Shown: positions 474 to 59,936, numbered from the stretch's first letter. The stretch is DNA of 64,000 bases from a phage (GCA_019326865.1 GCA_019326865.1_4101.1), one strand, 5' to 3'. Notes: generated by a model from the letters alone, not told the origin. Program-made: numbers and translations.

Positions 474-1817
474 TTATTTGTCAGTGAAAGTTATTTTCCA
501 ATATCCTTGTCGATAAACAGACATAATACTTTTATGCCATTTAAATTTGTCATTATACCTATAATAACCATTATCTTCTTTATTATAAATGTAATTACGT
601 ACAGATGATGGGTCAATTAATTCAACACCATCGTTTGTAATTTTAAACATATAATTTGAAGGAATTTCGGTTTCTTTATAAATGATGTTATGTATACTAT
701 TATTTACATAATATTGTTCCGGTATGGCATCGAAAAGAACTGAACCTTTCTGTACAAAACCATGTATTGTATAATCAACAGTATAGTTACTATTATCAAG
801 CTGCACAATAATTTTGTTAGCATCTTCATTTTCACCATATGAAGATATATAACCTTTAAGTGGATTGTCTTCTTCGATTGACTGTTGGAATTTAATACCT
901 ACTTTTTTGTCATCAAAATTTGGTTCTAAATATTTAAGATACTTTTCCCATGAATATATACCACCATTAGGTGAAACATCAGATAATGACTGACTGACTA
1001 AAGTTAACTGATATGTATCTGGTAAATTATATAAAGAATTAGTAATTTCTTCAACTTTAATACATAAATTTTTGGGCGTAAAAACATCAGTAATAATATC
1101 AGAATAGTCACCCATTTCAATATCAAATTCGTCACGAGCACCTTTAATGTTAGTAGTAATTTGATGAATTAGTTTTGGCTTTTCAACAATAGCTGGTAAA
1201 GAAAACCAAATTGTTGTTTCAAATGTTAATACCATTATATCCAAATCTTGATCAGTGCCTTGTGGAAAACCACGCGTAGTGAACTGACAATCAACTAATT
1301 CAACATCACTAAGTGATGTCCAGTCTAATGGATTATCTGATAATTGAAGCTGTATGCTTGGTGCAAATAAAGTAGAAATTTGCTCGAATAATTCCATTTT
1401 TGTTTGAATTTGAGTTACCCAAATATTCAAATCAAATGTAAAAGTCCAAGGTACTGGGTTGTGTCTTACAATTTTATACTGTGTGTCAAGTTCCTTTTTA
1501 TATTCATTAATAGCAGGAGACTTGTTTGTCCCCATCACTAAAGTTTCATTTGCATTAGAACGTATACTCTTACGATCCAACTTGAGTTGGTTAACACTTA
1601 TTGTCATAATAGGTGCTGATGGCAAAACGTTTTCACTATTACCATTAATAATTGCTGCTGCCATTCTTGAAATATCAGCATAACGACATGGAACTTTTTT
1701 ATATTTTGGGTTTCCATCAGCATCAACACCATTTTGTACTTGAAATTCACCAAAAACTCTGATAAGATGTTTCAGTACTCTGCGAAATTGACCGTCATAA
1801 TAATAATCTATCTTCAT
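474..1817 (-). CDS. virion structural protein, probable baseplate/tail component (447 aa)
   Basis: Long ORF in AT-rich DNA; same strand and operon as gp6/gp7-like genes; ATGA start/stop overlap with upstream ORF (translational coupling); no diagnostic motif recognised. Confidence 0.45.
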   Translation of the reverse strand: MKIDYYYDGQFRRVLKHLIRVFGEFQVQNGVDADGNPKYKKVPCRYADISRMAAAIINGNSENVLPSAPIMTISVNQLKLDRKSIRSNANETLVMGTNKSPAINEYKKELDTQYKIVRHNPVPWTFTFDLNIWVTQIQTKMELFEQISTLFAPSIQLQLSDNPLDWTSLSDVELVDCQFTTRGFPQGTDQDLDIMVLTFETTIWFSLPAIVEKPKLIHQITTNIKGARDEFDIEMGDYSDIITDVFTPKNLCIKVEEITNSLYNLPDTYQLTLVSQSLSDVSPNGGIYSWEKYLKYLEPNFDDKKVGIKFQQSIEEDNPLKGYISSYGENEDANKIIVQLDNSNYTVDYTIHGFVQKGSVLFDAIPEQYYVNNSIHNIIYKETEIPSNYMFKITNDGVELIDPSSVRNYIYNKEDNGYYRYNDKFKWHKSIMSVYRQGYWKITFTDK

Positions 1818-3307
1818 TCTGTATCCTTATGTATACGATATGCAGTATTTGGTTTAACTGCGTCATGTAATGGGACTTTATTATCACTATTTACGAACTT
1901 AGTAAGTGCCAAGTCTGCACCTTCCCATGGTTTTCTACCACCATAATCAAAAATAACCCATGAATTCTTTGTTGCATTGAATTCCCATAACGTAACTGGT
2001 GTATAATCGGTGCGATAAAAATAATCCCCATCAACAGCATCAGTAGGGAACATATTTCCTTCTGGAACAGTTCCTCTAGCGGGTGGAATTTTCGGTCGAT
2101 AATCCTGTTGGGCATCAATATTTCCATATACACTATTTGATGAGAATGGTTCATTAACATAGGTTACTTTTGGCTCGCCCCATTTATCATCATTGTACTG
2201 AAAAATGTGTGGTTCTTTATAAAAAATACAAAAATCTTCAATATTTTGCGGTGGGATATCACTTGTAGTATATTCTACATCACAATTTAACCATTTTTTA
2301 GCACTTTTGTCGTACTGATACAACGTATACCCAGTCACATCTGCATCATTTTCTTTAAAGAAAAAATCCCCATCCATTGGTTTTTTTGGAAAAACTGTTC
2401 CACGCTTGACTTCCAGTGAAATCCATGTATCATTGTCATACTCTTTGAGAACTGGGTACGTTTTTTTCAAAAAATACATACCATTAGCAGGTTCTTCTGG
2501 AAAATCATAACCGTTGAGCATATATTTAGATAAATCCACAGTATCGCGGCGGTCATCATACAAATGCTCGTTTGTATAATGGATATAAGGTACTTCATCA
2601 TCAGCTTGCATAATAATACGGTTCATAATATCCATTTCATTACTATAATTACTGTTTTCGGACGTACCATCGGTTGTGTTTCCATTACCATTATTTGGAT
2701 CATTTGGGTTATCTGGGTAATTATTGTTCCCCAGTAAGTCAGAGTACTCAGGTGAGTCAGTTAGTGGTTTTACTCTAAGTTTGTAAATGTGGTGTTGCCA
2801 CGTTACAGAGTAACCTTCGGCTGTACGAAATGCATCTTGTACCACATAGAAGCGATTTAGACCAGAATCTTTACCAAGTACATCATAATCACGCAAATTT
2901 GGCAATTCTATTACATCACCAGGCATGATTTTCCTGCCTAATCGTTGCATCATGGTATTGTAATGAATTGTGATGTCCATTGTGTTAAAATTAAAGAACA
3001 ACCCTGGGATTTTCAAGTCAGGGGTTGCTTCTTGGACTTGATAAACACAACTAAGTGTGATTGCTTCAAGGTTATAGCTTCGATTTGGTGTGTCTCCAAA
3101 AATTAAATCACCAATACTTGACACAACCGTACCGGAAGATGTATAATCACCGCCATATGATAAGTCATTGCTATCCGCAACTTGTTTTGGACCAACATAA
3201 GCGTAAAGCCACATGTCCACTCCACCTATGTTGTATTGTTCAGCAATTGCAGAGTCAATGAACTTGTAATCATTTGTTCTACCTTTTTTCCACATTCTAT
3301 ATGTCAT
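1814..3307 (-). CDS. virion structural protein, probable baseplate/tail component (~497 aa)
   Basis: Track ORF begins at a TTG (3319); first ATG at 3305-3307 has GGAG RBS 6 nt upstream; repeated DGDFFFK/DGDYFYR motifs; function by synteny only. Confidence 0.45.
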   Translation of the reverse strand: MTYRMWKKGRTNDYKFIDSAIAEQYNIGGVDMWLYAYVGPKQVADSNDLSYGGDYTSSGTVVSSIGDLIFGDTPNRSYNLEAITLSCVYQVQEATPDLKIPGLFFNFNTMDITIHYNTMMQRLGRKIMPGDVIELPNLRDYDVLGKDSGLNRFYVVQDAFRTAEGYSVTWQHHIYKLRVKPLTDSPEYSDLLGNNNYPDNPNDPNNGNGNTTDGTSENSNYSNEMDIMNRIIMQADDEVPYIHYTNEHLYDDRRDTVDLSKYMLNGYDFPEEPANGMYFLKKTYPVLKEYDNDTWISLEVKRGTVFPKKPMDGDFFFKENDADVTGYTLYQYDKSAKKWLNCDVEYTTSDIPPQNIEDFCIFYKEPHIFQYNDDKWGEPKVTYVNEPFSSNSVYGNIDAQQDYRPKIPPARGTVPEGNMFPTDAVDGDYFYRTDYTPVTLWEFNATKNSWVIFDYGGRKPWEGADLALTKFVNSDNKVPLHDAVKPNTAYRIHKDTE

Positions 3308-3349
3308 ATTTGTCTCCAAAATAATTCGGGTATATCTTTATTTACCATG

Positions 3350-3377
3350 TAGACAAACCATAAGAATGTGATATAAT
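3350..3377 (+). promoter_or_regulatory. sigma70-type early promoter for ClpA-like gene
   Basis: TAGACA-N16-TATAAT with TGa extended -10. Confidence 0.5.
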
Positions 3378-20289: not shown

Positions 20290-22953
20290 TTATTGACATG
20301 CCTCCAAACGTCGAGCCATTAACTCAGCACGGCGGGTCGTTTGACGATACCAAGCCGAATTACGGATTTGTGCTGCTGCTTGTTTATAATTTCCTTTCGC
20401 TAATTCAGATAACATTGTTTTAAATTTAAGAACTCCACCTTTGCCCATTTGAAATACCATTTGACATAGAACTTGTTGTGCCATATAAGGAGTTTTCATG
20501 TTATATGATGCATAAATTGATTTAGCATCATAAATTGCTTTACTACTATCACGAACAAGCATATCATTTGCTTGTTGTTCAGTTATCCCAGAAGAAAAGT
20601 TTTCACCATTCACAATTAAGTGACCGTAACCAATAGTTGGGAAGCCACGACTATCTAAATAACGCCAGAATTTACCATTTCGATAATACCCTTTTGCTTG
20701 CTGATATTGCATAGTACCCTCATATTCCTTTAATTCGGAAATAAATTGAGAATCGCCAGGTACAATTTTCCAATCTATTGCAGTTTTATCTACATTACCG
20801 ACATTATATGTTGGTTGCACAACTGGAGTAGATGATACACCACTTCTCTGTGTTCTTTTTTTACGAGGAACATGTCGGGAGCCACGTTGTGAATAACCAG
20901 TCCCAATTGTTTTAATTTTGGTAGTAACAACCAATTCATCACTATCAACGGATGGTTGCACTACTGCTTGTGGTGAAGATTGATTTGTTGCTTGACCTGC
21001 AATCAATGTTTTATTAGCTGCGTCTGCACCAATACCAGTTTGTGATGCATAAAACAATCCTGGGTCAACTGAACCACTAAAGCCGAGTACGTTAGCTGAC
21101 GTTACACGTATTTCAAATTGCATAACACCATTTGCTTTACCAATGACCTGTCCCTTTTGAACAACATCCTTGTTTAGTAAATTAGTTTGAATATTATAAA
21201 ATATAGATTTATAACCCGATTTATGTTGTATCAAAATTCCACCATTAGTAATTACAACAACACCCCCATCTGGTGCAACAACATCTCCTTTACATTGTAT
21301 TTCCCATCCAGAACGGTCAGTCTTTCCTCCATTTTGTGTTGGTACACCTTTTCCCCAATAACCATATTGACGAATGGTCCCACTACACGGCATATACATA
21401 TGCAAACCCTCATATGTAATGCTATACCCAGTCATTCCAGTATCAGATACCATTAAATCTTGTGTTTGTACTTGTTCAGTTTCGGATGTATAATTCACAA
21501 ATTGAATAGCTTCAGTTTCTTGAGCTTCAGGTATTTCAGGCGTAACATCATTTGCAGGCTGTGGTTGAACAGGTGATTCACTTGAAATCTTCCCCCCACC
21601 TTGTCTCGGTGGTTCAACATAACTACCATGGTTTTTCGCATCAACCCATGCAACAATATCATGAATGTGTTCATTAAGGCCAGTAGATGGTGTTTTAAAG
21701 TTCGGAGCAGTAAATTCCGCTGTTCCGCTGTTTCCTCCACTATTAACTGTCAATGTTTCTCCCCCACCACTAATGATTGCAGATGATGAACCAATTAAAT
21801 TTGCGGAAGTAGAAGCAGATATAGATGCATTCGAACCTGCTGTAATATCAGTACTGCTACCACTTTGCATACGCAAGGACGCAGCAGTGACTAATCGAAG
21901 ATCAGCACCTGAATTGACCACAACTTGTCCACCAACTTTTGCATCAAGAGTTCCAATTAAATCTAATTTAGTATTGGCTCCTACGCGTGCATTAAAATCT
22001 TGACCAGTTTCAATATTATATGAACGTCCAGCAGTGATATTAATATCTTGTCCTGCACGAATATTGATATTCTTATCACAGTGCATATCAATATCCCCTT
22101 CACCAGTAAATTTTATACGGGCGGTTCCATCACGATTAATCAAAAGTACATCCCCTGTTGCTTCTGATAATAATAGTTGTGCACCACTACGTGTTTTTAT
22201 TACAACTCCTTCATTTTTTCGAGAACCAACACGTGTGTCGTTTACTGGGTTATTGAATTGTGTATCTTGATATCCATCTGGGTCTTGATCCCATGTAGGT
22301 GCAGTTAATTCCTCTTCTGTATAACCATCATCAATAATGAAACTATTTCCACGTGGGGATGACATCCCATATACAGTACTCGTTGTTTGACGAGTACTAC
22401 TTCGGTTAGCAAGACCAGCTTCTTCATCATACAAAAGGTTTTGCTTTTTAAGACCAGCAATAATTGGAACGTTTGCATATTTGTCTTGCATATCAGTAGT
22501 GATTGTGTTACGATCATAGTCAGTAACAGGAAGAGGCATATCTGTGCCGCTATAACTACTAATCTCGGTTGCCATACCAGGGACCATAGTATTCATGCGG
22601 TGGTCATATACACAACCAATCCAATACGCTTGAAATGTACGTGCCTGTGCGAAAATCACAACAACAGTGCACCCAACATCAGGCGGCACAGCCCAGAATC
22701 CATATCCTTTAGGATATTGCCCATAAGCATCTGCACTTGGAATACCTGGAGTTTTACCAGCAAAAGGAGACATATAAGATGCCTCAATCCATGATTCTTT
22801 TGAATTTTTATCGCTTTGTGAACCTTGTATCCAAACTTTTAACTTTCCAGATTTAGTTGGATCTCTATTATCCATAACTGTTGCTAATTGTGGATAAGCT
22901 GGGTCAAAACGACCCAACTGTTGTTGTGCATACTTTTTACTTGTATCTGCCAT
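20290..22953 (-). CDS. baseplate central spike protein gp5-like with C-terminal lysozyme domain (887 aa)
   Basis: N-terminal OB-fold-like region (GKLKVWIQG...GFWAVPPDVGCTVVVIF), Gly/Ser/Thr-rich beta-helix-type repeats, M23-peptidase-like segment lacking HxH (VMQFEIR), C-terminal lysozyme motif GFPTIGYGHL. Confidence 0.7.
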   Translation of the reverse strand: MADTSKKYAQQQLGRFDPAYPQLATVMDNRDPTKSGKLKVWIQGSQSDKNSKESWIEASYMSPFAGKTPGIPSADAYGQYPKGYGFWAVPPDVGCTVVVIFAQARTFQAYWIGCVYDHRMNTMVPGMATEISSYSGTDMPLPVTDYDRNTITTDMQDKYANVPIIAGLKKQNLLYDEEAGLANRSSTRQTTSTVYGMSSPRGNSFIIDDGYTEEELTAPTWDQDPDGYQDTQFNNPVNDTRVGSRKNEGVVIKTRSGAQLLLSEATGDVLLINRDGTARIKFTGEGDIDMHCDKNINIRAGQDINITAGRSYNIETGQDFNARVGANTKLDLIGTLDAKVGGQVVVNSGADLRLVTAASLRMQSGSSTDITAGSNASISASTSANLIGSSSAIISGGGETLTVNSGGNSGTAEFTAPNFKTPSTGLNEHIHDIVAWVDAKNHGSYVEPPRQGGGKISSESPVQPQPANDVTPEIPEAQETEAIQFVNYTSETEQVQTQDLMVSDTGMTGYSITYEGLHMYMPCSGTIRQYGYWGKGVPTQNGGKTDRSGWEIQCKGDVVAPDGGVVVITNGGILIQHKSGYKSIFYNIQTNLLNKDVVQKGQVIGKANGVMQFEIRVTSANVLGFSGSVDPGLFYASQTGIGADAANKTLIAGQATNQSSPQAVVQPSVDSDELVVTTKIKTIGTGYSQRGSRHVPRKKRTQRSGVSSTPVVQPTYNVGNVDKTAIDWKIVPGDSQFISELKEYEGTMQYQQAKGYYRNGKFWRYLDSRGFPTIGYGHLIVNGENFSSGITEQQANDMLVRDSSKAIYDAKSIYASYNMKTPYMAQQVLCQMVFQMGKGGVLKFKTMLSELAKGNYKQAAAQIRNSAWYRQTTRRAELMARRLEACQ

Positions 22954-22964
22954 ATTTTTATTCC

Positions 22965-25214
22965 TTAGTCAACTATACTATCGTGACGTTTAAGTGCACG
23001 GATTACTATTGCAGCTTGAATTTGTTGTGTAAAAGAACCACCTGCACCAAAATCATGAACGATTTTATTAACACGATAAATTGTTTGATTAAACGTAGTT
23101 GGTGTATTGATATCCAATACTCCAGTGTTATCATTAATTGATACTACTGGTTGTAATTTTAATAATAGATATGCTTCAGATGTTATGTAGTTTGCTACAT
23201 GATAATCATCTGGATTAATTTCCATATCTTCACCATTAATTACTTGCTCTAGATATTGTAAGTACGAGTAATCACTCCATCCTAACCAATATGGATCACC
23301 AACTACACGCATATCAAGTTTACACAAAAAAGGTCTATTGTAATAGTTGTCACGTATTTTACGTCTGTCCATTTCATATGTACTGCTGTTATCGTTTAAC
23401 GAAGCTGATAACGTCGTTTCATTATTAGTTGCTTCAGTAGGCATAGTAAATACTTCACCATAACGATGACCTACGCCATCTGTTCCTTCATCGTTTTCTT
23501 CATATGTAGTGACATAATCTTCAATATATTGTGGTAACACATTTACTTGATAATTATTATAACGGTCTTGTTCTTCGGCGTTACCGACCTGCATTTGGTT
23601 TTTAGCCAACGTATCAATTTCCGTCAATAAATCTTGTTGATCTTTTGTTAACATCCCACCCATATCACGTGTTACACGCAAATCACTTGTTTTTGCCCAT
23701 GCATCTGGTATACTATTATATTGCACACCTTGTATATTCAATTCTTGGGAGTTATGTGTACCAGAATGGTTTGCCACGTCTTGAATTGGTCCTGGATTAC
23801 GGGTTGTTGCTACGAAAAATTGTTGGTCAAATTTCAAATCCAAATCAATTATCTCACTATTAAGACCACTAAACTGATAATTGTAAGTTTTTATATTTAA
23901 TTTTGGTTTTTGATCGATAGGATCTACATATTTTTCCGCATTCTCAAAGAAATACTCAAATGTGAAATTTTCTGGTTGCAAATCAGATTCATGTACAATA
24001 TCACCTATCTTAAATTTAACTATATAAAAAATAACTTTATAAACTGAAGTGTTACGATAATTATCAAAACCTATATATTGTTTTATTGGTATAATATTAA
24101 CAAATTGTCGTACACTGGTGCTCTCATCTGCTTGTACTGTGCAAGTATCAATAACATCATCAATAATTCTGGATATAGGAGTACTGGGGTTCCATGAAAA
24201 GTTTTTAGAACCTTGAGTTCCACTTTTAGTAGTTCCGGCTTCTGCCATTTGTTTAGAATCATAATTTATAAACAAATCTTGTAAATCAGGAGCAACTTTA
24301 AATTCAAAAAATTTACCATCAGATAATTCGCCAAATTTATATCTAAGATATCCATATTGTTGGTCAGCCATCTGATTTAATTTATCTTCCAAATCAAAAC
24401 AGAAATCACCAAAGTTTTCAGCCGTACAATTAAATGGTTCTTTTAGTGTCCATTCAATATTATCAACCAATGCTGCTCTATTATGAACTAAACTCATAGA
24501 ATACATCATAGTGCTTCCACTTTGAGATGCACTTGCCGTTATACTATTAATTTTAACTGACCATCTTCGTGTTGTTTCTGGGATAATTTCAGGGATTCCA
24601 TTCTTATTAAAACCAATGAATTTTAATTCCAATATTAACGGTAAGTCCATGAATTTGTGAAATCTAAGTTTATTACTTAACGATATTAGTTCATCATATA
24701 GACTCATACTATTATTTTCAGACATATTAAGAACTGCCGTATTGAAACAATAGTTAGTTGTCATTCCAGGTGTGGATGGCCCAGCTTGCGTCATTTGTAC
24801 ACTTGTGATATTATATTTTCCACTAACACCACTTTCAGATATAACATGACGCTGTACGTCGGCATCTGGATAAAGCCAAAAATTTTTAAAATCATCCTTA
24901 TCTAACGCAAACAAACAAAAATGCCAAGTTGGATTATCATATTTTAATAGTTTGTTGTTGTATGGTATTACAAATTGACTTAAATCTAAATCTTCATAAA
25001 CTTGTTCCACACCAGCACTCTGTGATGGCAATGACTCAACATTACTAACATTTGCTTTATAGTTATTTTTTGTAATAGCTTTCACATCATTTTGTAATGT
25101 ATTAGCGGTAGCTTTCAAACTATCCAGTGAATTAGATGCAGTTGCTTTTGTCTTCTTATTAATACTTGAAATATCATTTTGAAAATTATCAACTGTACTT
25201 CGTAAATCTGCCAT
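22965..25214 (-). CDS. baseplate/tail structural protein, possible hub component (749 aa)
   Basis: Long ORF directly upstream of spike gene in same operon; GGAG RBS; no diagnostic motif. Confidence 0.4.
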   Translation of the reverse strand: MADLRSTVDNFQNDISSINKKTKATASNSLDSLKATANTLQNDVKAITKNNYKANVSNVESLPSQSAGVEQVYEDLDLSQFVIPYNNKLLKYDNPTWHFCLFALDKDDFKNFWLYPDADVQRHVISESGVSGKYNITSVQMTQAGPSTPGMTTNYCFNTAVLNMSENNSMSLYDELISLSNKLRFHKFMDLPLILELKFIGFNKNGIPEIIPETTRRWSVKINSITASASQSGSTMMYSMSLVHNRAALVDNIEWTLKEPFNCTAENFGDFCFDLEDKLNQMADQQYGYLRYKFGELSDGKFFEFKVAPDLQDLFINYDSKQMAEAGTTKSGTQGSKNFSWNPSTPISRIIDDVIDTCTVQADESTSVRQFVNIIPIKQYIGFDNYRNTSVYKVIFYIVKFKIGDIVHESDLQPENFTFEYFFENAEKYVDPIDQKPKLNIKTYNYQFSGLNSEIIDLDLKFDQQFFVATTRNPGPIQDVANHSGTHNSQELNIQGVQYNSIPDAWAKTSDLRVTRDMGGMLTKDQQDLLTEIDTLAKNQMQVGNAEEQDRYNNYQVNVLPQYIEDYVTTYEENDEGTDGVGHRYGEVFTMPTEATNNETTLSASLNDNSSTYEMDRRKIRDNYYNRPFLCKLDMRVVGDPYWLGWSDYSYLQYLEQVINGEDMEINPDDYHVANYITSEAYLLLKLQPVVSINDNTGVLDINTPTTFNQTIYRVNKIVHDFGAGGSFTQQIQAAIVIRALKRHDSIVD

Positions 25215-25225
25215 GTGTTACTCCA

Positions 25226-25540
25226 TTAGCCTATGTTTCGAGTACCATTAAGATAGTTTTGTACTCTTTGATTTGCTGGTATTCTAATTGTTACTCCACT
25301 TTTAAAATTATATATAGGATCTTCTCCTAATATATCTGGATTTAACAATGCAAAAATATAATATAAACGTTCATTGCCATACATCTCGTATGCTAAACGC
25401 CAAGGTTGATATTCATACTTCAATGGGATCTCATAAAAATCATCAGTATCAGCAGGAACTATATCTCGTGGTAAATTATAACCAAGATACCAAGATTGCT
25501 TCACCTTAGCATAAGGCGAATATTGACTATAGTTGGACAT
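25226..25540 (-). CDS. small baseplate protein with LysM-like motif (tail protein X / gp53-like, 104 aa)
   Basis: C-terminal pattern RLAYEMYGNERLYYIFALLNPDILGEDPIYNFKSGVTIRIP resembles the LysM consensus; synteny. Confidence 0.4.
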   Translation of the reverse strand: MSNYSQYSPYAKVKQSWYLGYNLPRDIVPADTDDFYEIPLKYEYQPWRLAYEMYGNERLYYIFALLNPDILGEDPIYNFKSGVTIRIPANQRVQNYLNGTRNIG

Positions 25541-26271
25541 TAAATAAATCCTCCTTTGCGTAATAGTTCACCTCGTTTAAATGCATTGAGGTTGAACGTT
25601 TTAGTCATATAATCAGATGTCGGTTGTTCTTCAAGTTGTAACATAACTAATATTTTTTGAGGAACCCAAACTTCATCTTGTGGATTCATATATCCAGTAC
25701 TTCTAAGTTGTTCGAAGAATTTTCTACTATCCATGTCTGATAAATTAAAAGTACTGTCACTACTATCCAAAGGAACTTGAATATAAGAAACATCATTAGG
25801 ATATGTAAAATTATAAGATTTTAAAATTACAGGAATATCATTATATGTGTAACGACCATATCCACTCAAAAGTAAAATTGGTGGTGGTGCACCAGCAATT
25901 GCCAATTCGGGGTTATTAGCAGATGCTGCTTGTCTACCAAAATCCATCAATGAAACCGAACGTATAAAATGAACACATGCCAACGCATACATGGCTTCTG
26001 CTGCTGTATTGGCATAAAACTCACCCTGAATAGTGAAAACAGTATTGGTGGTGTTTTTGTAGTTGTTATAGTTACTGTTGGTATGTATAGGTGACTGTGT
26101 TTCATACTGAACTGACCTTTGTTCAGTAATTGTTGGTGTTACAGTCCAAACCAACCCATTAGTTGGACGCAGAAACGAAAGTAGAGTTGGTTCGGAGCTA
26201 TCCCCGAAATCACCATATACATAGTTAGCACCTGCGGCTTTAGGTCGTAATCGAATTCTACGATCAATCAT
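25540..26271 (-). CDS. baseplate/tail structural protein (~243 aa)
   Basis: Track ORF starts at GTG 26328 which lies upstream of the late promoter box; in-frame ATG at 26269-26271 preceded by GGAG; first gene of the minus-strand late operon. Confidence 0.4.
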   Translation of the reverse strand: MIDRRIRLRPKAAGANYVYGDFGDSSEPTLLSFLRPTNGLVWTVTPTITEQRSVQYETQSPIHTNSNYNNYKNTTNTVFTIQGEFYANTAAEAMYALACVHFIRSVSLMDFGRQAASANNPELAIAGAPPPILLLSGYGRYTYNDIPVILKSYNFTYPNDVSYIQVPLDSSDSTFNLSDMDSRKFFEQLRSTGYMNPQDEVWVPQKILVMLQLEEQPTSDYMTKTFNLNAFKRGELLRKGGFI

Positions 26272-26305
26272 CTTTTGATTCTCCATCATAAGGGAACATT
26301 TGATG

Positions 26306-26313
26306 TATTTATA
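26306..26313 (-). promoter_or_regulatory. T4-type late promoter (TATAAATA) for minus-strand baseplate operon
   Basis: Exact TATAAATA on minus strand, divergent from and overlapping the gp55 early promoter. Confidence 0.5.
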
Positions 26314-26316
26314 CGT

Positions 26317-26344
26317 GGGACAAATCACTTTTTAGTGCTATAAT
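26317..26344 (+). promoter_or_regulatory. sigma70-type early promoter for gp55-like gene
   Basis: GGGACA-N16-TATAAT preceded by GTGC. Confidence 0.55.
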
Positions 26345-26401
26345 AACATTGATGGTACAAGGATTGTATCTATTGGATTTAAACATGGAGAGTTGAATAT
26401 A

Positions 26402-27241
26402 ATGACAAATAGACCAAAGCGTAAAAAGTATCTCAATAATGCTGATTTACTTCGTGAAATACAAAAAAGTAAGATTTCATATTGCTGGTTATTAGACAAA
26501 TCATATAGTATGTATGATTATATCGTTTTTCATGAGTCAGAAATTACTGCTGAGTTACTTGAAAAAGCAAAAGCAGCACGAATTAAACGACTTAATAATG
26601 AAATGCTTGATAGTATTCGTGCAAAGGAAAATATGAGTGCTAAAAAAGCGAAAGAATATGCAGAAGAAAATAATCTCGTTATTACTGATGTTCCAATTGA
26701 TGAAGTAGTTATTCGTGTTATAACAGATGAACACATCCCACCAGATACTAGAGTTAATTTTGAACCTTTCAAACATTACATTGTAGATAGTGAAGGTATT
26801 CTTTATGAAGTATGTCGTTCTCATTGGAAAGGTGATCTTGAATCTGGGGAATTTAGTGCTGTTCATGGTAAAATTACAAATGAACTAGGGAAAATGTTCA
26901 TTAAACTTGCAGAGGAAATCTCACATAAATCTAATTATCGAAACTATACATACTTAGATGAAATGATGGGTGATGCAAGAATACAATTAGTTAAAAATGC
27001 ACTTCTCTTTAAAGAGAGCATTCTTTATAAAAAAGACAAACCCGCTGTACAACTAAATCCTTTCTCTTACTATACATCATTCGTAAACAATAGTTTTCGT
27101 TCAATTTTGAATAGTGAGAAAAATGTTCGAAATATACGTGATGATTTACTTGAAATGCATGGTTTTACTCCATCACATACACGTCAAATTGAAATTGAAT
27201 TGAACATGATTGAAAGGAAAAATGAAGATGGCACTGTTTGA
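26402..27241 (+). CDS. late-transcription sigma factor gp55-like (~280 aa)
   Basis: Position immediately upstream of gp47/gp46 as in T4; N-terminal KKYLNNADLLREIQK and C-terminal segments resemble gp55 as recalled; track start 26393 is TTG, ATG at 26402. Confidence 0.6.
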   Translation: MTNRPKRKKYLNNADLLREIQKSKISYCWLLDKSYSMYDYIVFHESEITAELLEKAKAARIKRLNNEMLDSIRAKENMSAKKAKEYAEENNLVITDVPIDEVVIRVITDEHIPPDTRVNFEPFKHYIVDSEGILYEVCRSHWKGDLESGEFSAVHGKITNELGKMFIKLAEEISHKSNYRNYTYLDEMMGDARIQLVKNALLFKESILYKKDKPAVQLNPFSYYTSFVNNSFRSILNSEKNVRNIRDDLLEMHGFTPSHTRQIEIELNMIERKNEDGTV

Positions 27242-28259
27242 TAAAGCAATTACATTCACTGATATTCATTTAGGATTAAAGAATAACAGCAAGCAGCATA
27301 ATGAAGATTGTTTAAACTTCATTAAATTTATGATTGATGTAGCTAAAAAAAATAATATTAAAGTTTGTGTTTTTATGGGTGATTATTTTCACAATAGAAG
27401 TAATATAAATATCCAAACACTAAACTATGGTTTACAAATACTCCAATTACTAAATGATAATTTTGAAAAAGTTTATTTTCTCGTCGGGAACCATGATATG
27501 TATCACAAAAACAAACGTGATATAACAAGTATCAATATGGCCCAAGTTTATGAAAATATAGAATTCATTAACGAAATTACAACAATTGATGATTGTACTT
27601 TTATTCCTTTTATGATTGAAGATGAATATAAGTTATTACCACAACTAAAAAGTAAGTATGTTTTTGGACACCTAGAATTACCAGGTTACTTACTTAACAA
27701 AATGGTCGAAATGCCCGACCATGGTAAAGAAACAGAAGGTTCTTTTGGTGGTTGTGAGTATGTTTTTAGTGGGCATTTTCATAAGAGACAATCAAAAACA
27801 ACATCAAAGGGAACTCGTGTAGTTTATACTGGTAATTGTTTCCCACATAATTTTTCCGATACATGGGATGATGCAAGAGGTGTGATGATTTTAGAACATG
27901 GAAAAGAACCAATTTTCAATTCTTGGACAGAAGCACCAAAATATAGAACATTTACACTTTCAGAACTTTTGACTGACCCAAGTTATTATCTTCAAGAGAA
28001 TACAATTTCAAAGGTTCAAGTTGATATTGCGATAACTACAGATGAAATTAGTTTTATTCGTGATACTTTTACTAAACTTTATAACATACGTGAATTTAAC
28101 GTAGTTACTAGTAAACAAAGTATATCAGAATTGATTGAAGATGGTAAAAGCTTTGAAAGTACTGAGTCAGTTGATGAGATTGTTTTACAACAAATTATGG
28201 AAATTGATTCACCAATGTTCGATAAAAATCTTCTAATCCAAATTTACAGATCGCTATAA
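27210..28259 (+). CDS. recombination nuclease subunit gp47 (Mre11-like calcineurin-type phosphoesterase)
   Basis: Phosphoesterase motifs DIHLG, GDYFHN, GNHDMY, GHLE, GHFH; followed by Rad50-like gene; true start may be 27222 or 27228. Confidence 0.85.
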   Translation: MKGKMKMALFDKAITFTDIHLGLKNNSKQHNEDCLNFIKFMIDVAKKNNIKVCVFMGDYFHNRSNINIQTLNYGLQILQLLNDNFEKVYFLVGNHDMYHKNKRDITSINMAQVYENIEFINEITTIDDCTFIPFMIEDEYKLLPQLKSKYVFGHLELPGYLLNKMVEMPDHGKETEGSFGGCEYVFSGHFHKRQSKTTSKGTRVVYTGNCFPHNFSDTWDDARGVMILEHGKEPIFNSWTEAPKYRTFTLSELLTDPSYYLQENTISKVQVDIAITTDEISFIRDTFTKLYNIREFNVVTSKQSISELIEDGKSFESTESVDEIVLQQIMEIDSPMFDKNLLIQIYRSL

Positions 28260-28267
28260 GGGAATAT

Positions 28268-30415
28268 ATGCTAAACATTACACGTATATCAATGAGGAAC
28301 TTCTTTTCATTTGGGAACGCACCACAATCAATAGAATTGAATAGTTCTGATATTTCATTAGTTCTTGGGCAAAATAATGATGCAGTTATTGAAGGTGGTG
28401 ATAGCACTGGACGACGAAATGGAGTAGGGAAAAGTGCTATTATTCAAGGATTAGTTTTTGGCTTATTTGGGAAAAGTATTGGTAATGATATTAAAATTCC
28501 CAACCTAGTCAACAAAACTAATGGCAAAAATTGTGAAGTAGTTATAGAGTTTGAAAAAGATGGTGTGCAATATATAGTTGAGCGTGGGAGAAGTCCTACG
28601 TATTTCAATTTTATAACATTAGGAAAAGATAATAAGATTGAAGATGAATCGAGAGGTGAAAAAAAAGACACACAAGAAGATTTGAATGAAATTCTTGGAA
28701 TATCTCAATTATTATTTGAACATATTGTAGTTCTTAATGCGAACGTAGAACCGTTTTTGGCTTTATCATCTCAAAAACAACGTGATATGATAGAAGAACT
28801 TCTTGGAATAACACAGTTGACTGAAAAAGCTGAAATTCTAAAGGAGATGTACAAGGATACTAAACGTTTAGCCGAACAAGAAAAGTTCAAAAATGAAACT
28901 GTGGCTGCAAGCAATGAACGCATTCAAAAAAGTATTGAAGTACTTCAAGAACAGGCTAACCAATTTGAGATTGATAAAAGTAATAGAGTATCTAAGCTAA
29001 ATGAAGAGTTGAATATATATAAAACTTTAGATTTCAATGATCTCTACCAAGCTGCTGAAGAGAAAGAGAAAGCTCTTATTCATAACGCAAAGCGTGGTGA
29101 AATTGAACGCCGTGTACAAGAGTTGGCTTTAAAATATGATGCTTATGAACGTGAACTTGAAACGTCCAAACGAGTGTTAAATCTAAGCATTGATAATTTA
29201 AAAACGATTGATATTAGTTCGGAATTGGAAAATCACAAGGAGTTGGAAATATGGAAACAGTTAGAGGCTATTCTTAAAGAGAATAATAATCAAAAACGTT
29301 TCAAAGAACAAAAGCTCAACTCACTAAAAGTTGCGTTGAATGGATATAAATGTTCAATTAATACTGAAATCGATAAATTATCAACAGTTGAAAGCAGTAA
29401 ATGTCCACTTTGTATGTCTGATTTGGAACATAACGAACATACATCTTCAATTAAAGACAAAATTCAAAGTTCTATTAGTGATCTTCAAACCAAAATTGAT
29501 AGTTCTTCTTCAGAAATTGAAACATTACTTAAAGAAATTGAGAGTATTGAGATTTTTGATATGCCACCTAAACCAGTGACATACTATAATACACTTTCAG
29601 AAGCACAAATGCATGAACATAAGCTTCAAGAACTGATTAAAAAGAGCGAAGAAGAACCAATAAACATCTATGCTAACGAACTTATGTCATCATATGATGA
29701 ACTTAACTCATATGAACTAATGGAAGTACCAGATACATTAAACAAGTACGAAGTTAAAGAGATAGAAATGACCGTAAGCTCGTTATCACAGCAATTAGAA
29801 CGTGAATTGAAGACTACTAACACTTTTATTAGCCAAATTAACACCCTTAAGACAGATTCTTTAGTTACAATAGACTATAGTGACTATAATAATCTTGATA
29901 AAATGTCAAATCACCAAGATTTTTTGGTTAAATTACTATTGAACAAGGATTCTTATGTCCGTAAGCGTATTATTGAGCAAAATATCTCATATTTGAATAC
30001 ACGACTTCAGTATTATATCGATATGTGCGGTTCTGAGCACAATGTTGTGTTTTTGAATGATTTGAGTGTTGAAATTGAGAAAAGTGGGCAGTACTTTGAC
30101 TATAAACAGCTTAGTAGGGGTGAGCGTACAAGGGTAAACATCGCATTATCTTGTGCTTTCCGTGATACATATGAGTCATTATACCAAAGTATTAATATTC
30201 TTATCATTGATGAGATGATTGACCAAGGTCTTGACTCAAGTGGTGTTCTACGTGTGTGGTCTATCTTCCAAGATATGGCTGCTGTACGTGGTAAGAATGT
30301 TTATGCTATTTCCCACAGAGAAGAGTTACTTTCTAAGACTGAAAAAATCCTCAAAGTTGTTAAAGAGGACGGATTCAGTACTGTTGAATATGCAACTCTT
30401 GATGATGTTTTCTAA
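28268..30415 (+). CDS. recombination ATPase subunit gp46 (Rad50/SbcC-like)
   Basis: N-terminal Walker A GRRNGVGKS, long coiled-coil with CPLC zinc hook, C-terminal LIIDEMIDQGLD Walker B/D-loop. Confidence 0.9.
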   Translation: MLNITRISMRNFFSFGNAPQSIELNSSDISLVLGQNNDAVIEGGDSTGRRNGVGKSAIIQGLVFGLFGKSIGNDIKIPNLVNKTNGKNCEVVIEFEKDGVQYIVERGRSPTYFNFITLGKDNKIEDESRGEKKDTQEDLNEILGISQLLFEHIVVLNANVEPFLALSSQKQRDMIEELLGITQLTEKAEILKEMYKDTKRLAEQEKFKNETVAASNERIQKSIEVLQEQANQFEIDKSNRVSKLNEELNIYKTLDFNDLYQAAEEKEKALIHNAKRGEIERRVQELALKYDAYERELETSKRVLNLSIDNLKTIDISSELENHKELEIWKQLEAILKENNNQKRFKEQKLNSLKVALNGYKCSINTEIDKLSTVESSKCPLCMSDLEHNEHTSSIKDKIQSSISDLQTKIDSSSSEIETLLKEIESIEIFDMPPKPVTYYNTLSEAQMHEHKLQELIKKSEEEPINIYANELMSSYDELNSYELMEVPDTLNKYEVKEIEMTVSSLSQQLERELKTTNTFISQINTLKTDSLVTIDYSDYNNLDKMSNHQDFLVKLLLNKDSYVRKRIIEQNISYLNTRLQYYIDMCGSEHNVVFLNDLSVEIEKSGQYFDYKQLSRGERTRVNIALSCAFRDTYESLYQSINILIIDEMIDQGLDSSGVLRVWSIFQDMAAVRGKNVYAISHREELLSKTEKILKVVKEDGFSTVEYATLDDVF

Positions 30416-30926: not shown

Positions 30927-31018
30927 AATTCCTCACCAAACTATTTGTCATCACAATATTTATAGATTAGTTATTTGCAATATTTTAAGTACTTAATTAA
31001 TATTTTATAAAAAAATGT

Positions 31019-31046
31019 GAGACAACTTTAAAGTTTGTGCTATAAT
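31019..31046 (+). promoter_or_regulatory. sigma70-type early promoter driving non-coding island
   Basis: GAGACA-N16-TATAAT preceded by GTGC. Confidence 0.5.
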
Positions 31047-31526
31047 ATTTGTTGTAGTAATGACAATCCTGTTGAATGCAGAAATGCATATAAATTAGAA
31101 CCTGATCCTATCGAAAATGTAGATGGCAGATGAGCAGTTCAACAGTGCGATGAGCAAAAGAAACCCGTTAGATGTGGGCATAGTTTGAACCCCTCACGGC
31201 AATGCGGCTCAATAAAGAACTCCGATAAGCATACAGAGAGTTCCTAGATAGACATATAAGGATCGCACCTTACCAGATTTGCTAAGGGAGTTTATTAAGT
31301 GATTTTTAATAAACAGCCTGAAGTTTGATTGTATAGACTTTCAGGTGAGTGTCAGGATGATTAAGACTGACGACCGTTGCATATGACCGTGATAGGGAGA
31401 AACCGAGCAACCCGCTTCCGTTTGCGATTGATCTTTTTACAATATAGATCCGTCCAAAATTCACGATACAATAAATGCTGAAACCATCAGCGTCAAGAAA
31501 TAGAGACTTCATTGTCTCTTTTTTAT
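31047..31526 (+). ncRNA. candidate non-coding RNA locus
   Basis: Early-type promoter at 31019-31046, hairpin plus T-run at 31503-31526, no ORF with RBS in between, locally higher GC with complementary segments; structure not computed. Confidence 0.25.
31503..31526 (+). terminator. rho-independent terminator ending non-coding island
   Basis: AGAGAC-ttcatt-GTCTCT then T5. Confidence 0.55.
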
Positions 31527-32818: not shown

Positions 32819-32909
32819 TTTTGTTAAATCTCCATGTAATAAATGTGTTTATAGTATTTATGAACTCAATAAAGATCAAATAAACCATTTTTTATAATCA
32901 CAATAGTTT

Positions 32910-32917
32910 TATAAATA
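32910..32917 (+). promoter_or_regulatory. T4-type late promoter (TATAAATA)
   Basis: Exact box ~33 nt upstream of ATG 32950. Confidence 0.5.
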
Positions 32918-52861: not shown

Positions 52862-53461
52862 TTATAGTTGAACTGGAAGAGCAGCACGTACTTTAATAGC
52901 TACAGCAGTAGATGCACCTGCATCACCAACACCATCAGTTCCTTGACTTACGAAAGTTTTAGTACGAAAAACTTTAGCTTGTGCAATAGATTTAGCTAGG
53001 TCAACAGTTGGATCAACTGGAGCAGGACATGCAGAACCTGGACGAACTTCTTGTTTATTAAATACGTCTTGACGTTCACAGATGAAAGTCAATGCAACAG
53101 AGTTAGCACCACCTTTAACATCAGTACCGCTAGTACCAAATGCAACTACGTTTGGGTTAGCATTTTTAAAATCTTCAGGAATAACAACTTCTGCATCAAG
53201 AGCAAGTAGTGAAGTCGTTACAAGAACAGCACGTTGCTGTAGTAGTTGAGTAACCATGAATAGGTTATATTGTGCATTGCTTAGTGCAGTTTGATATGCA
53301 TCAGCTTGAGCATCAGAACCATCGGACACAACTTTAGTAGTACCGATTTCAACATCAGTTGGTAGGTCGATTACGATGGTTACAAAACCGTTGTTGCCAC
53401 CCCACCATTCACGTGCAACACCAGACATACCATAGTTACGGTTAAAAGAATTAAGACTCAT
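52862..53461 (-). CDS. structural-type protein, paralog 2 of tandem pair
   Basis: As above; AAGGAG RBS. Confidence 0.45.
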   Translation of the reverse strand: MSLNSFNRNYGMSGVAREWWGGNNGFVTIVIDLPTDVEIGTTKVVSDGSDAQADAYQTALSNAQYNLFMVTQLLQQRAVLVTTSLLALDAEVVIPEDFKNANPNVVAFGTSGTDVKGGANSVALTFICERQDVFNKQEVRPGSACPAPVDPTVDLAKSIAQAKVFRTKTFVSQGTDGVGDAGASTAVAIKVRAALPVQL

Positions 53462-53585
53462 GAAAATCTCCTTGTCGAATTTTGTGCAGGTTCATCCTGC
53501 TTAAAGTTATTTATCAAAAAATATTCCTAGCATTTAAATTTACTGGAATAATTAATGAATTTCTATGATATTATTTATCAAAAAT

Positions 53586-59936
<6,351 letters not shown>

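Follow-up and report, generated by a model that had tools for sequence, protein, structure and literature searches.

Back-to-back divergent promoters of different predicted temporal classes between the late sigma factor gene and the baseplate operon of a Rak2-like jumbo phage

The gap at 26272-26401 of the phage DNA analysed here (one stretch of 64,000 nucleotides, hereafter the window) probably holds two back-to-back divergent core promoters of different temporal classes, and occupancy of the late promoter box would at most damp the opposing promoter late in infection. We give this reading a probability of about 0.6. On the minus strand, a late promoter with the box TATAAATA would drive the structural/baseplate operon and be read by the host core polymerase carrying the gp55-like factor. 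On the plus strand, a promoter of a class that we call M (TGGGACA, 13 nt, TGcTATAAT) would drive an operon of gp55-like, gp47-like, and gp46-like genes, and the mRNA of this operon is predicted to start with a conserved 5' stem-loop. The late sigma factor would probably be made in the middle/delayed-early wave because class M is distinct from the early class and fronts many DNA-metabolism genes. Timing would be set mainly by the availability of the sigma factors. One polymerase at either promoter would occlude the other, and the likely consequence, if there is one, would be that the late holoenzyme damps the class M promoter late in infection, resulting in negative feedback on gp55 synthesis.

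The window comes from a member of Asteriusvirus, within the 'Rak2-like' group of jumbo myoviruses (~350 kb). Between 25000 and 28500, its identity is 98% with Escherichia phage UE-S1 and 92% with 121Q and its relatives. Coding sequence makes up 94% of the window (non-coding 6%). The minus-strand operon on one side of the gap gave hits to PHROG 12050, 7145, and 11190, and its 121Q orthologues are annotated as gp590-587. We placed the start of its first gene at ATG 26271 and not at the ATGs further upstream, because a 1-nt indel in 121Q throws those ATGs out of frame; the intergenic gap is therefore 26272-26401, that is, 130 bp. On the other side of the gap, the 279-aa product of the first plus-strand gene matched PHROG 234, 'late sigma transcription factor' (E = 1.4e-16), and matched cyanophage gp55 by tblastn, with the gp55-family match covering residues 128-262 only. 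Table 1 summarizes the coordinates of these genes and of the predicted regulatory elements.

Table 1. Positions of genes, predicted promoter elements, and related features (window coordinates unless 121Q is named)
Feature	Position	Strand	Remarks
gp5-like hub/lysozyme	20290-22953	-	Pfam Phage_base_V and lysozyme
749-aa structural protein	22965-25214	-	ORF
gp53-like wedge protein	25226-25540	-	Pfam gp53
243-aa virion structural protein, first gene of the late structural operon	25540-26271	-	ORF
Shine-Dalgarno GGAGA of the structural gene	26280-26284	-	8 nt before ATG 26271; plus-strand CTCC kept in all relatives
T4-type late promoter box TATAAATA, exact octamer	26313-26306	-	plus strand reads tatttata at 26306-26313
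-35-like heptamer TGGGACA, class M	26316-26322	+	hexamer GGGACA = 26317-26322
Spacer, 16 nt	26323-26338	+	ends in TGc (26336-26338)
Extended -10 TGcTATAAT	26336-26344	+	TATAAT hexamer = 26339-26344
5'-terminal stem-loop in the predicted leader of the gp55 mRNA	26354-26370	+	5-7 bp stem, loop A(A/C)GGAT(Y)
Shine-Dalgarno GGAGA of the gp55-like gene	26387-26391	+	ATGGAG kept in relatives
gp55-like late sigma factor gene, 279 aa	26402-27241	+	PHROG 12791 and 234; tblastn
gp47-like recombination nuclease gene	27222-28259	+	Pfam Metallophos
gp46-like recombination nuclease gene	28268-30415	+	Pfam AAA_23/Rad50 hook
Junction 1, late box GGTAAATA	3346-3339	-	3-nt gap to the class M hexamer
Junction 1, TAGACA-N16-TATAAT with TGa	3350-3377	+	full junction 3339-3377
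Junction 3, late box GATAAATA	53579-53572	-	6-nt gap to the class M hexamer
Junction 3, GGGAAA-N16-TATAAT with TGc	53586-53613	+	full junction 53572-53613
Late/late divergent junctions	window 32855-32917; 121Q 328390-328521, 292466-292577	both	late boxes
Class M promoter of the non-coding element	31017-31046	+	drives no protein gene
Non-coding element, ~470 nt	31053-31525	+	terminator at 31502-31519

An earlier note on this DNA had claimed an exact minus-strand octamer at 26306-26313 that faces the baseplate operon. The octamer is right to the base (TATAAATA), and its assignment held, as it is a T4-type box directed at structural/baseplate genes; it lies 34 nt upstream of ATG 26271 in the sense orientation. 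Raw counts showed no enrichment, either for TATAAATA in the window (9 observed against 11.4 +/- 3.4 in shuffles) or in a generic sigma-70 scan of the window (65 sites against 60.4 expected); therefore, neither motif is significant by count alone. The placement of the copies, in contrast, departs strongly from chance. Eight of the nine TATAAATA copies in the window preceded a gene on their own strand, in the sense orientation and at 16-66 nt from its start; seven copies were strictly intergenic, and an eighth was within the last codons of the preceding gene. For a window that is 94% coding, a rough binomial estimate of this placement was < 1e-8.

We also counted motifs over the whole assembled genome of 121Q (348 kb), where TATAAATA was the rarest among 56 permutations of the same composition. 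It occurred 17 times, 11 of them upstream of genes and in the sense orientation, and only 5 copies were in coding sequence, compared with 40-90 for most other permutations. The next-rarest permutations all contain the TAAATA core. This indicates that TATAAATA is strongly counter-selected away from promoters in 121Q. Across relatives, TATAAATA or AATAAATA was present at the orthologous position in 19 of 19 Rak2-like loci, 28-44 nt from the ATG of the structural gene; the loci compared were from Asteriusvirus, the PHA46/7t3 type, GAP32, CBB-like phages, RaK2/K64-1, and metagenomic contigs. The box was also present in the more distant Paride and Phosso, as GATAAATA and CATAAATA. The prediction of a real minus-strand late promoter is thus well supported by position, strand, counter-selection, and conservation. 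Many late boxes here read nATAAATA or have the TAAATA core only, and the late promoters gave no sign of a late-specific -35 element.

On the plus strand, the claim was of an early promoter, GGGACA-N16-TATAAT, at 26317-26344. The motif was located correctly to the base, and a sigma-70-type promoter does face the gp55-like gene, whose product matches PHROG 234. The TGc at the end of the spacer, which makes the -10 element an extended one, and the reading of the upstream element as the heptamer TGGGACA had been overlooked. The label 'early' found no support: the site lacks the traits of the canonical early class and fits class M.

These two classes come from 121Q, in which the intergenic TATAAT sites split into classes E and M. 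Class E comprised 47 sites with TTGACA or TTGCAA, a spacer of ~17 nt, an A-rich UP-like tract upstream, and no TGn preference; most of the sites were at 34-155 kb, with the highest density at 136-155 kb, a region in which each small ORF has its own promoter. Class M comprised 23 intergenic sites in which [GT][GA]GA[AC][AG] is separated from TATAAT by exactly 16 nt; TGn was present at 19 of them (Fisher p = 2e-10). Its consensus in 121Q/Asteriusvirus is G[G/A]GACA, a 16-nt spacer, and TGnTATAAT, with TG[G/A]GACA as the heptamer. The class M sites were dispersed over the replication/metabolism modules, many of them upstream of replication and recombination/repair genes, and they precede ssb, primase, exonuclease, nudix, ClpA-like, RNase H-like, and gp55-like genes, as well as a non-coding element. 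From these features, class M is predicted to be a phage-specific sigma-70-type class, distinct from the canonical early class.

The site at 26317-26344 has the class M heptamer TG(G/A)(G/A)AC(A/G), the 16-nt spacer, TGnTATAAT, and the location before a DNA-metabolism/regulatory gene. Membership of class E was ruled out by GGGACA (TT to GG) and by the 16-nt spacer; it is also contradicted by the upstream DNA, which is the late box, and by the position of the site within a structural/replication module. We considered a MotA-dependent middle promoter as well. The MotA box, (a/t)(a/t)TGCTT(t/c)A, is centred near -30, and the sequence around -30 here, AATCACTTTTT, holds no MotA box. Both promoter elements were kept at orthologous positions in the 19 related loci. 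The relatives showed the heptamer TGGGACA, TGGAACG, or TGAAACG at the same site, followed by a 16-nt spacer and TGnTATAAT; the exception was RaK2/K64-1, with a TTGAAT-like -35 element. The plus-strand promoter is therefore graded, on motif and location, as more probably middle/delayed-early than early.

As a side observation on class E, the promoters in the small-ORF clusters of 121Q (135-155 kb) carry a very conserved AGTACT(G) immediately before TATAAT. AGTACT recurs in the nearby intergenic DNA of the same region and in hairpins. The motif may serve to bind a shut-off factor or may be related to restriction or modification.

The leader that would follow the class M start carries a stem-loop that is conserved between genera, with compensatory substitutions in the stem and a conserved loop. 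In a gap-free alignment, 100% of the cells were paired, and three of the five pairs had changed on both sides. None of 500 shuffles reached the covariation score, and controls slid along the alignment paired in at most 45% of the cells. When the whole gp55 leader was aligned with MAFFT, RNAalifold predicted no pairs, as the helix was disrupted by a misplaced gap and by the divergent K64-1 sequence. Stabilisation of the mRNA and binding of a regulator are both conceivable roles for such a 5'-terminal hairpin. We also considered the hairpin as a shared operator and rejected it, as the search of the 121Q genome returned this single stem-loop locus and no other copy of the loop motif in a stem-loop context.

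The late box had further been described as lying directly beside the -35 element, which is so: the gap from the box to the hexamer is 3 nt. The predicted late start is near 26300 (minus strand) and the predicted class M start is near 26351-26352 (plus strand), ~51 bp apart. Counted from these positions, the late box would span about -45 to -38 relative to the class M start, and the class M -35 and -10 elements about -44 to -17 relative to the late start. The motif geometry implies that each -10 element would be within the upstream footprint of the other promoter. With footprints taken from T4, simultaneous occupancy of both promoters appears sterically unlikely. Given this ~51-bp distance between the predicted starts, it is plausible on geometric grounds that the two promoters exclude each other sterically, and the recurrence and conservation of the abutment, described below, lend this idea some indirect support.

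The T4 footprints need some care. In T4, roughly one turn of the helix separates the late box from the start site downstream of it, a -35 element is lacking, gp33 can be cross-linked to DNA at -35 to -39, and the clamp contributes another 13 bp to the footprint on the upstream side (PMC2988020). The authors of the CBB genome paper detected no homologues of gp33 or gp45 (PMC5259590); therefore, the clamp-based footprint of T4 may not transfer here. The CBB paper is at odds here with Iyer et al., who report that jumbo phages of group 2 have orthologues of gp33. A search of the literature for mapped 5' ends or time courses in Rak2-like phages found none; RNA-seq exists for PA5oct alone, and its paper does not discuss the timing of the sigma gene. 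The RaK2 and Sharanji papers contain nothing on promoters. Both start sites and both temporal classes are thus inferred here.

The earlier note had also proposed that exclusion provides a built-in early-to-late switch. Such a switch is not needed for timing because the late promoter cannot fire before the gp55-like factor exists. Any effect of exclusion would be confined to the late period, in which the promoter of the sigma gene itself would be damped.

The arrangement is not restricted to the gp55-like gene. A late box on the minus strand abuts a class M promoter on the plus strand, with a gap of 3-6 nt, at three of the four divergent late/M junctions in the window. The first junction (3339-3377) is between a structural gene (1814-3307, minus strand) and a ClpA-like gene (from 3418, plus strand), and the CBB orthologues of its two promoters are Porf_234 and Porf_235; relatives of this junction were gathered by tblastn on phage records. 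The third junction (53572-53613) is between a structural gene (52862-53461, minus strand) and an RNase H-like gene on the plus strand. All three abutting junctions are conserved across genera. At the fourth divergent late/M junction (30957-31046), between endonuclease VII and the non-coding element, the gap is 54 nt, so abutment is not obligatory. In 121Q, three of the four divergent class M sites had a minus-strand TAAATA core at most 8 nt from the hexamer. Of the 18 co-directional class M sites, none had one, and the background frequency was 1.5% for an intergenic window of 20 nt.

Two observations on neighbouring junctions were made in passing. At late/late divergent junctions, the opposed late boxes are 28-50 nt apart, a looser spacing than at the late/M junctions. 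For the RNase H-like gene (window 53619-53680, plus strand), the longest ORF begins 5 nt after the class M -10 element, and the alignment with relatives starts only at residue 14-20; translation probably begins at a codon ~40-60 nt further downstream.

The alternative that fared best is compaction alone. It holds that both promoters are real and independent, that tight packing brings them into abutment, and that their overlap has no regulatory consequence, as the two classes are timed apart. We rate this alternative at somewhat less than even odds. It draws on a window of 94% coding density and on a gap wholly filled by two leaders and two core promoters. Late/late divergent junctions are short too, and a T4-type late promoter needs no upstream DNA, so that deletions can draw a neighbouring promoter up to the box; the junction with the 54-nt gap evidently works without abutment. 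However, the distance between the late box and the heptamer stayed at 1-4 nt across genera in the 19 loci, whereas the leaders differed by up to 16 nt. The excess of TAAATA cores close to the hexamer at divergent class M sites of 121Q also speaks against compaction alone. The third junction is the most awkward case for it: the gap there is a roomy 157 bp, and a second late box at 53508-53515 is nearer to the structural gene, yet the abutting box is kept in Asteriusvirus (121Q), RaK2, SE_PL, SNUABM_44, and Yen9-03. Such retention is hard to attribute to compaction alone.

A second alternative is that the plus-strand promoter is truly early, with the host sigma-70 holoenzyme using the extended -10 element unaided from injection and G[G/A]GACA serving as a weak -35 element. 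TGnTATAAT is a near-optimal extended -10, and GGGACA agrees with TTGACA at four of six positions. A perfect TGnTATAAT should suit unaided host sigma-70 from the first minute, so that 'middle' may really be 'early'. In T4, gp55 transcripts were detected at the first time point (PMC9697503). The existence in the small-ORF early regions of a separate, abundant canonical class, from which class M differs in hexamer, spacer, TGn, and location, weighs against this alternative. So does the -35-like consensus, which varies with the phage genus (TGGGACA in Asteriusvirus, TGAAACG in CBB) although all hosts are Enterobacterales. These hosts share a near-identical sigma-70, and a genus-specific consensus would therefore point to a phage-encoded reader. 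We consider a truly early promoter unlikely, though it keeps a substantial minority share.

A candidate for such a reader is encoded by the phages themselves, and its presence is a further point against a truly early promoter. It is a full sigma-70-family protein with regions 2, 3, and 4 (121Q gp167, 89267-90232), located downstream of a class E promoter in an early-type operon. According to Iyer et al., group 2 jumbo phages carry two kinds of sigma factor, one 'minimal' and one RpoD-like. The sigma-70-family protein evolves much faster than the gp55-like factor: the former is 35% identical between 121Q and GAP32, and the latter 75%. Within Asteriusvirus, the sigma-70-family protein is only ~59% identical, and between genera 35-43%. 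The 7t3-type phages share the TGGGACA consensus of 121Q, yet their sigma-70-like protein is 37% identical. For these reasons, the comparison of region 4 with the -35-like consensus is not decisive.

A stronger regulatory interpretation, which we consider rather unlikely, is that late boxes 3-6 nt upstream of middle-type promoters form a conserved shut-off device, in which the gp55-like holoenzyme occludes class M. The box at the third junction is kept despite the nearer late promoter, as if it served the class M promoter. If this interpretation is true, the late sigma factor would negatively autoregulate its own gene, and middle genes would be switched off at the ClpA-like and RNase H-like junctions.

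Positive coupling is improbable. Divergent transcription from class M would put negative supercoils into the short spacer and thereby favour opening of the intrinsically weak late promoter. Negative supercoiling of the template strongly raises basal transcription by gp55 (PMC2988020), and the abutment recurs and is conserved; with start sites ~51 bp apart, however, both polymerases could hardly be bound together, and any coupling would have to be sequential. Finally, the idea that these are chance matches in AT-rich DNA and not promoters can be set aside almost completely, since the counts of TATAAATA and of sigma-70-like sites, which do not exceed shuffles, are outweighed by placement, strand, counter-selection in coding sequence, and cross-genus conservation.

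The non-coding element at the fourth junction may merit more attention than the promoter pair. It has four paralogues in 121Q (326.6, 247.5, 90.3, and 192.8 kb) and 287 matching places in 62 Rak2-like genomes, with 4-6 per genome. Almost every aligned copy for which upstream sequence was captured has its own class M-type promoter. RNAalifold on 25 distinct copies (56-99% identical) predicted 94 pairs, of which 56 had changed on both sides, with very few mismatches; the single-sequence fold gave a z-score of -3.3. Ten copies searched against Rfam 15 had no match on the relevant strand, and a limited literature search returned nothing on the element. From this pattern of substitutions and copies, it probably represents a structured RNA family that has yet to be described. 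Alternatively, it could be a T4-like origin, at which a middle promoter yields an R-loop transcript.

If two back-to-back promoters of different temporal classes is the right reading, the gap would be the hinge between the second and third tiers of a Rak2-like transcription programme that would run from host sigma-70 to class M promoters and then to the gp55-like factor. Rak2-like jumbo phages are under development for therapy. The practical value of our results is modest: exact coordinates for two promoter classes and three junctions, and a corrected 'early' label. They also yield a hypothesis that is inexpensive to test and can be falsified: occlusion, with the late sigma factor regulating its own synthesis. 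The principles involved are those of the textbook: a late sigma factor made from an earlier promoter class, TATAAATA read at late promoters, and divergent promoters that can overlap.

Among the closest known cases is phage CBB, in which a 'divergent RpoD-like' promoter with TGAAACG instead of TTGACA was described before the gp55-like and DNA-synthesis genes and was also seen in GAP32 (Buttimer et al. 2017, PMC5259590). By motif and location, class M matches this class, although the -35-like consensus is TGAAACG in CBB and TG[G/A]GACA here. Table S6 of that paper lists, as 'Promoter 1', TGGAACG-N13-TGGTATAAT at 168,994-169,022 (Porf_244), before the gp55-like gene, and Table S7 (late) lists ATAAATA at 168,976-168,989 (Porf_243) on the opposite strand, 4 nt away from Porf_244; the tables hold a further back-to-back case with a class E promoter, at Porf_537 and Porf_538 (PMC5259590). 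In the text of the paper that was searched, nothing is said about the promoters lying back to back, about other instances of this layout, or about how well it is conserved. The orthologous pair was thus already predicted in CBB, and what goes beyond the tables is the recurrent, cross-genus abutment of late and class M promoters.

Compared with T4, much of the arrangement is familiar. Some regions of T4 are transcribed on both strands at different times (PMC2988020), and two papers report that gp55 transcripts precede the late genes, as do those of gp33 and gp45 (PMC9697503; PMC6024815); given this precedent, the general logic of gp55 before late genes is conventional. As at T4 late promoters, the exact octamer TATAAATA is found upstream of structural genes on either strand, with a gp55 homologue adjoining and no late -35 element seen. 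The gp55-like protein here has 279 aa, unlike T4 gp55, which has 185 aa. The class M promoters resemble the MotA/AsiA middle promoters of T4 in combining a sigma-70 -10 element with a non-canonical upstream element and in preceding genes for replication, recombination, and late transcription factors. They differ from them in having no MotA box, an upstream element at -35 with a 16-nt spacer, and an almost obligatory TGn. Overlapping divergent promoters with occlusion are known in bacteria and phages, for example, lambda PR/PRM. As in lambda PR/PRM, the two core promoters here would be too close for joint occupancy, judging from the inferred footprints; unlike lambda PR/PRM, they have no known repressor or activator site in the gap and would be used by different holoenzymes, which would appear at different times.
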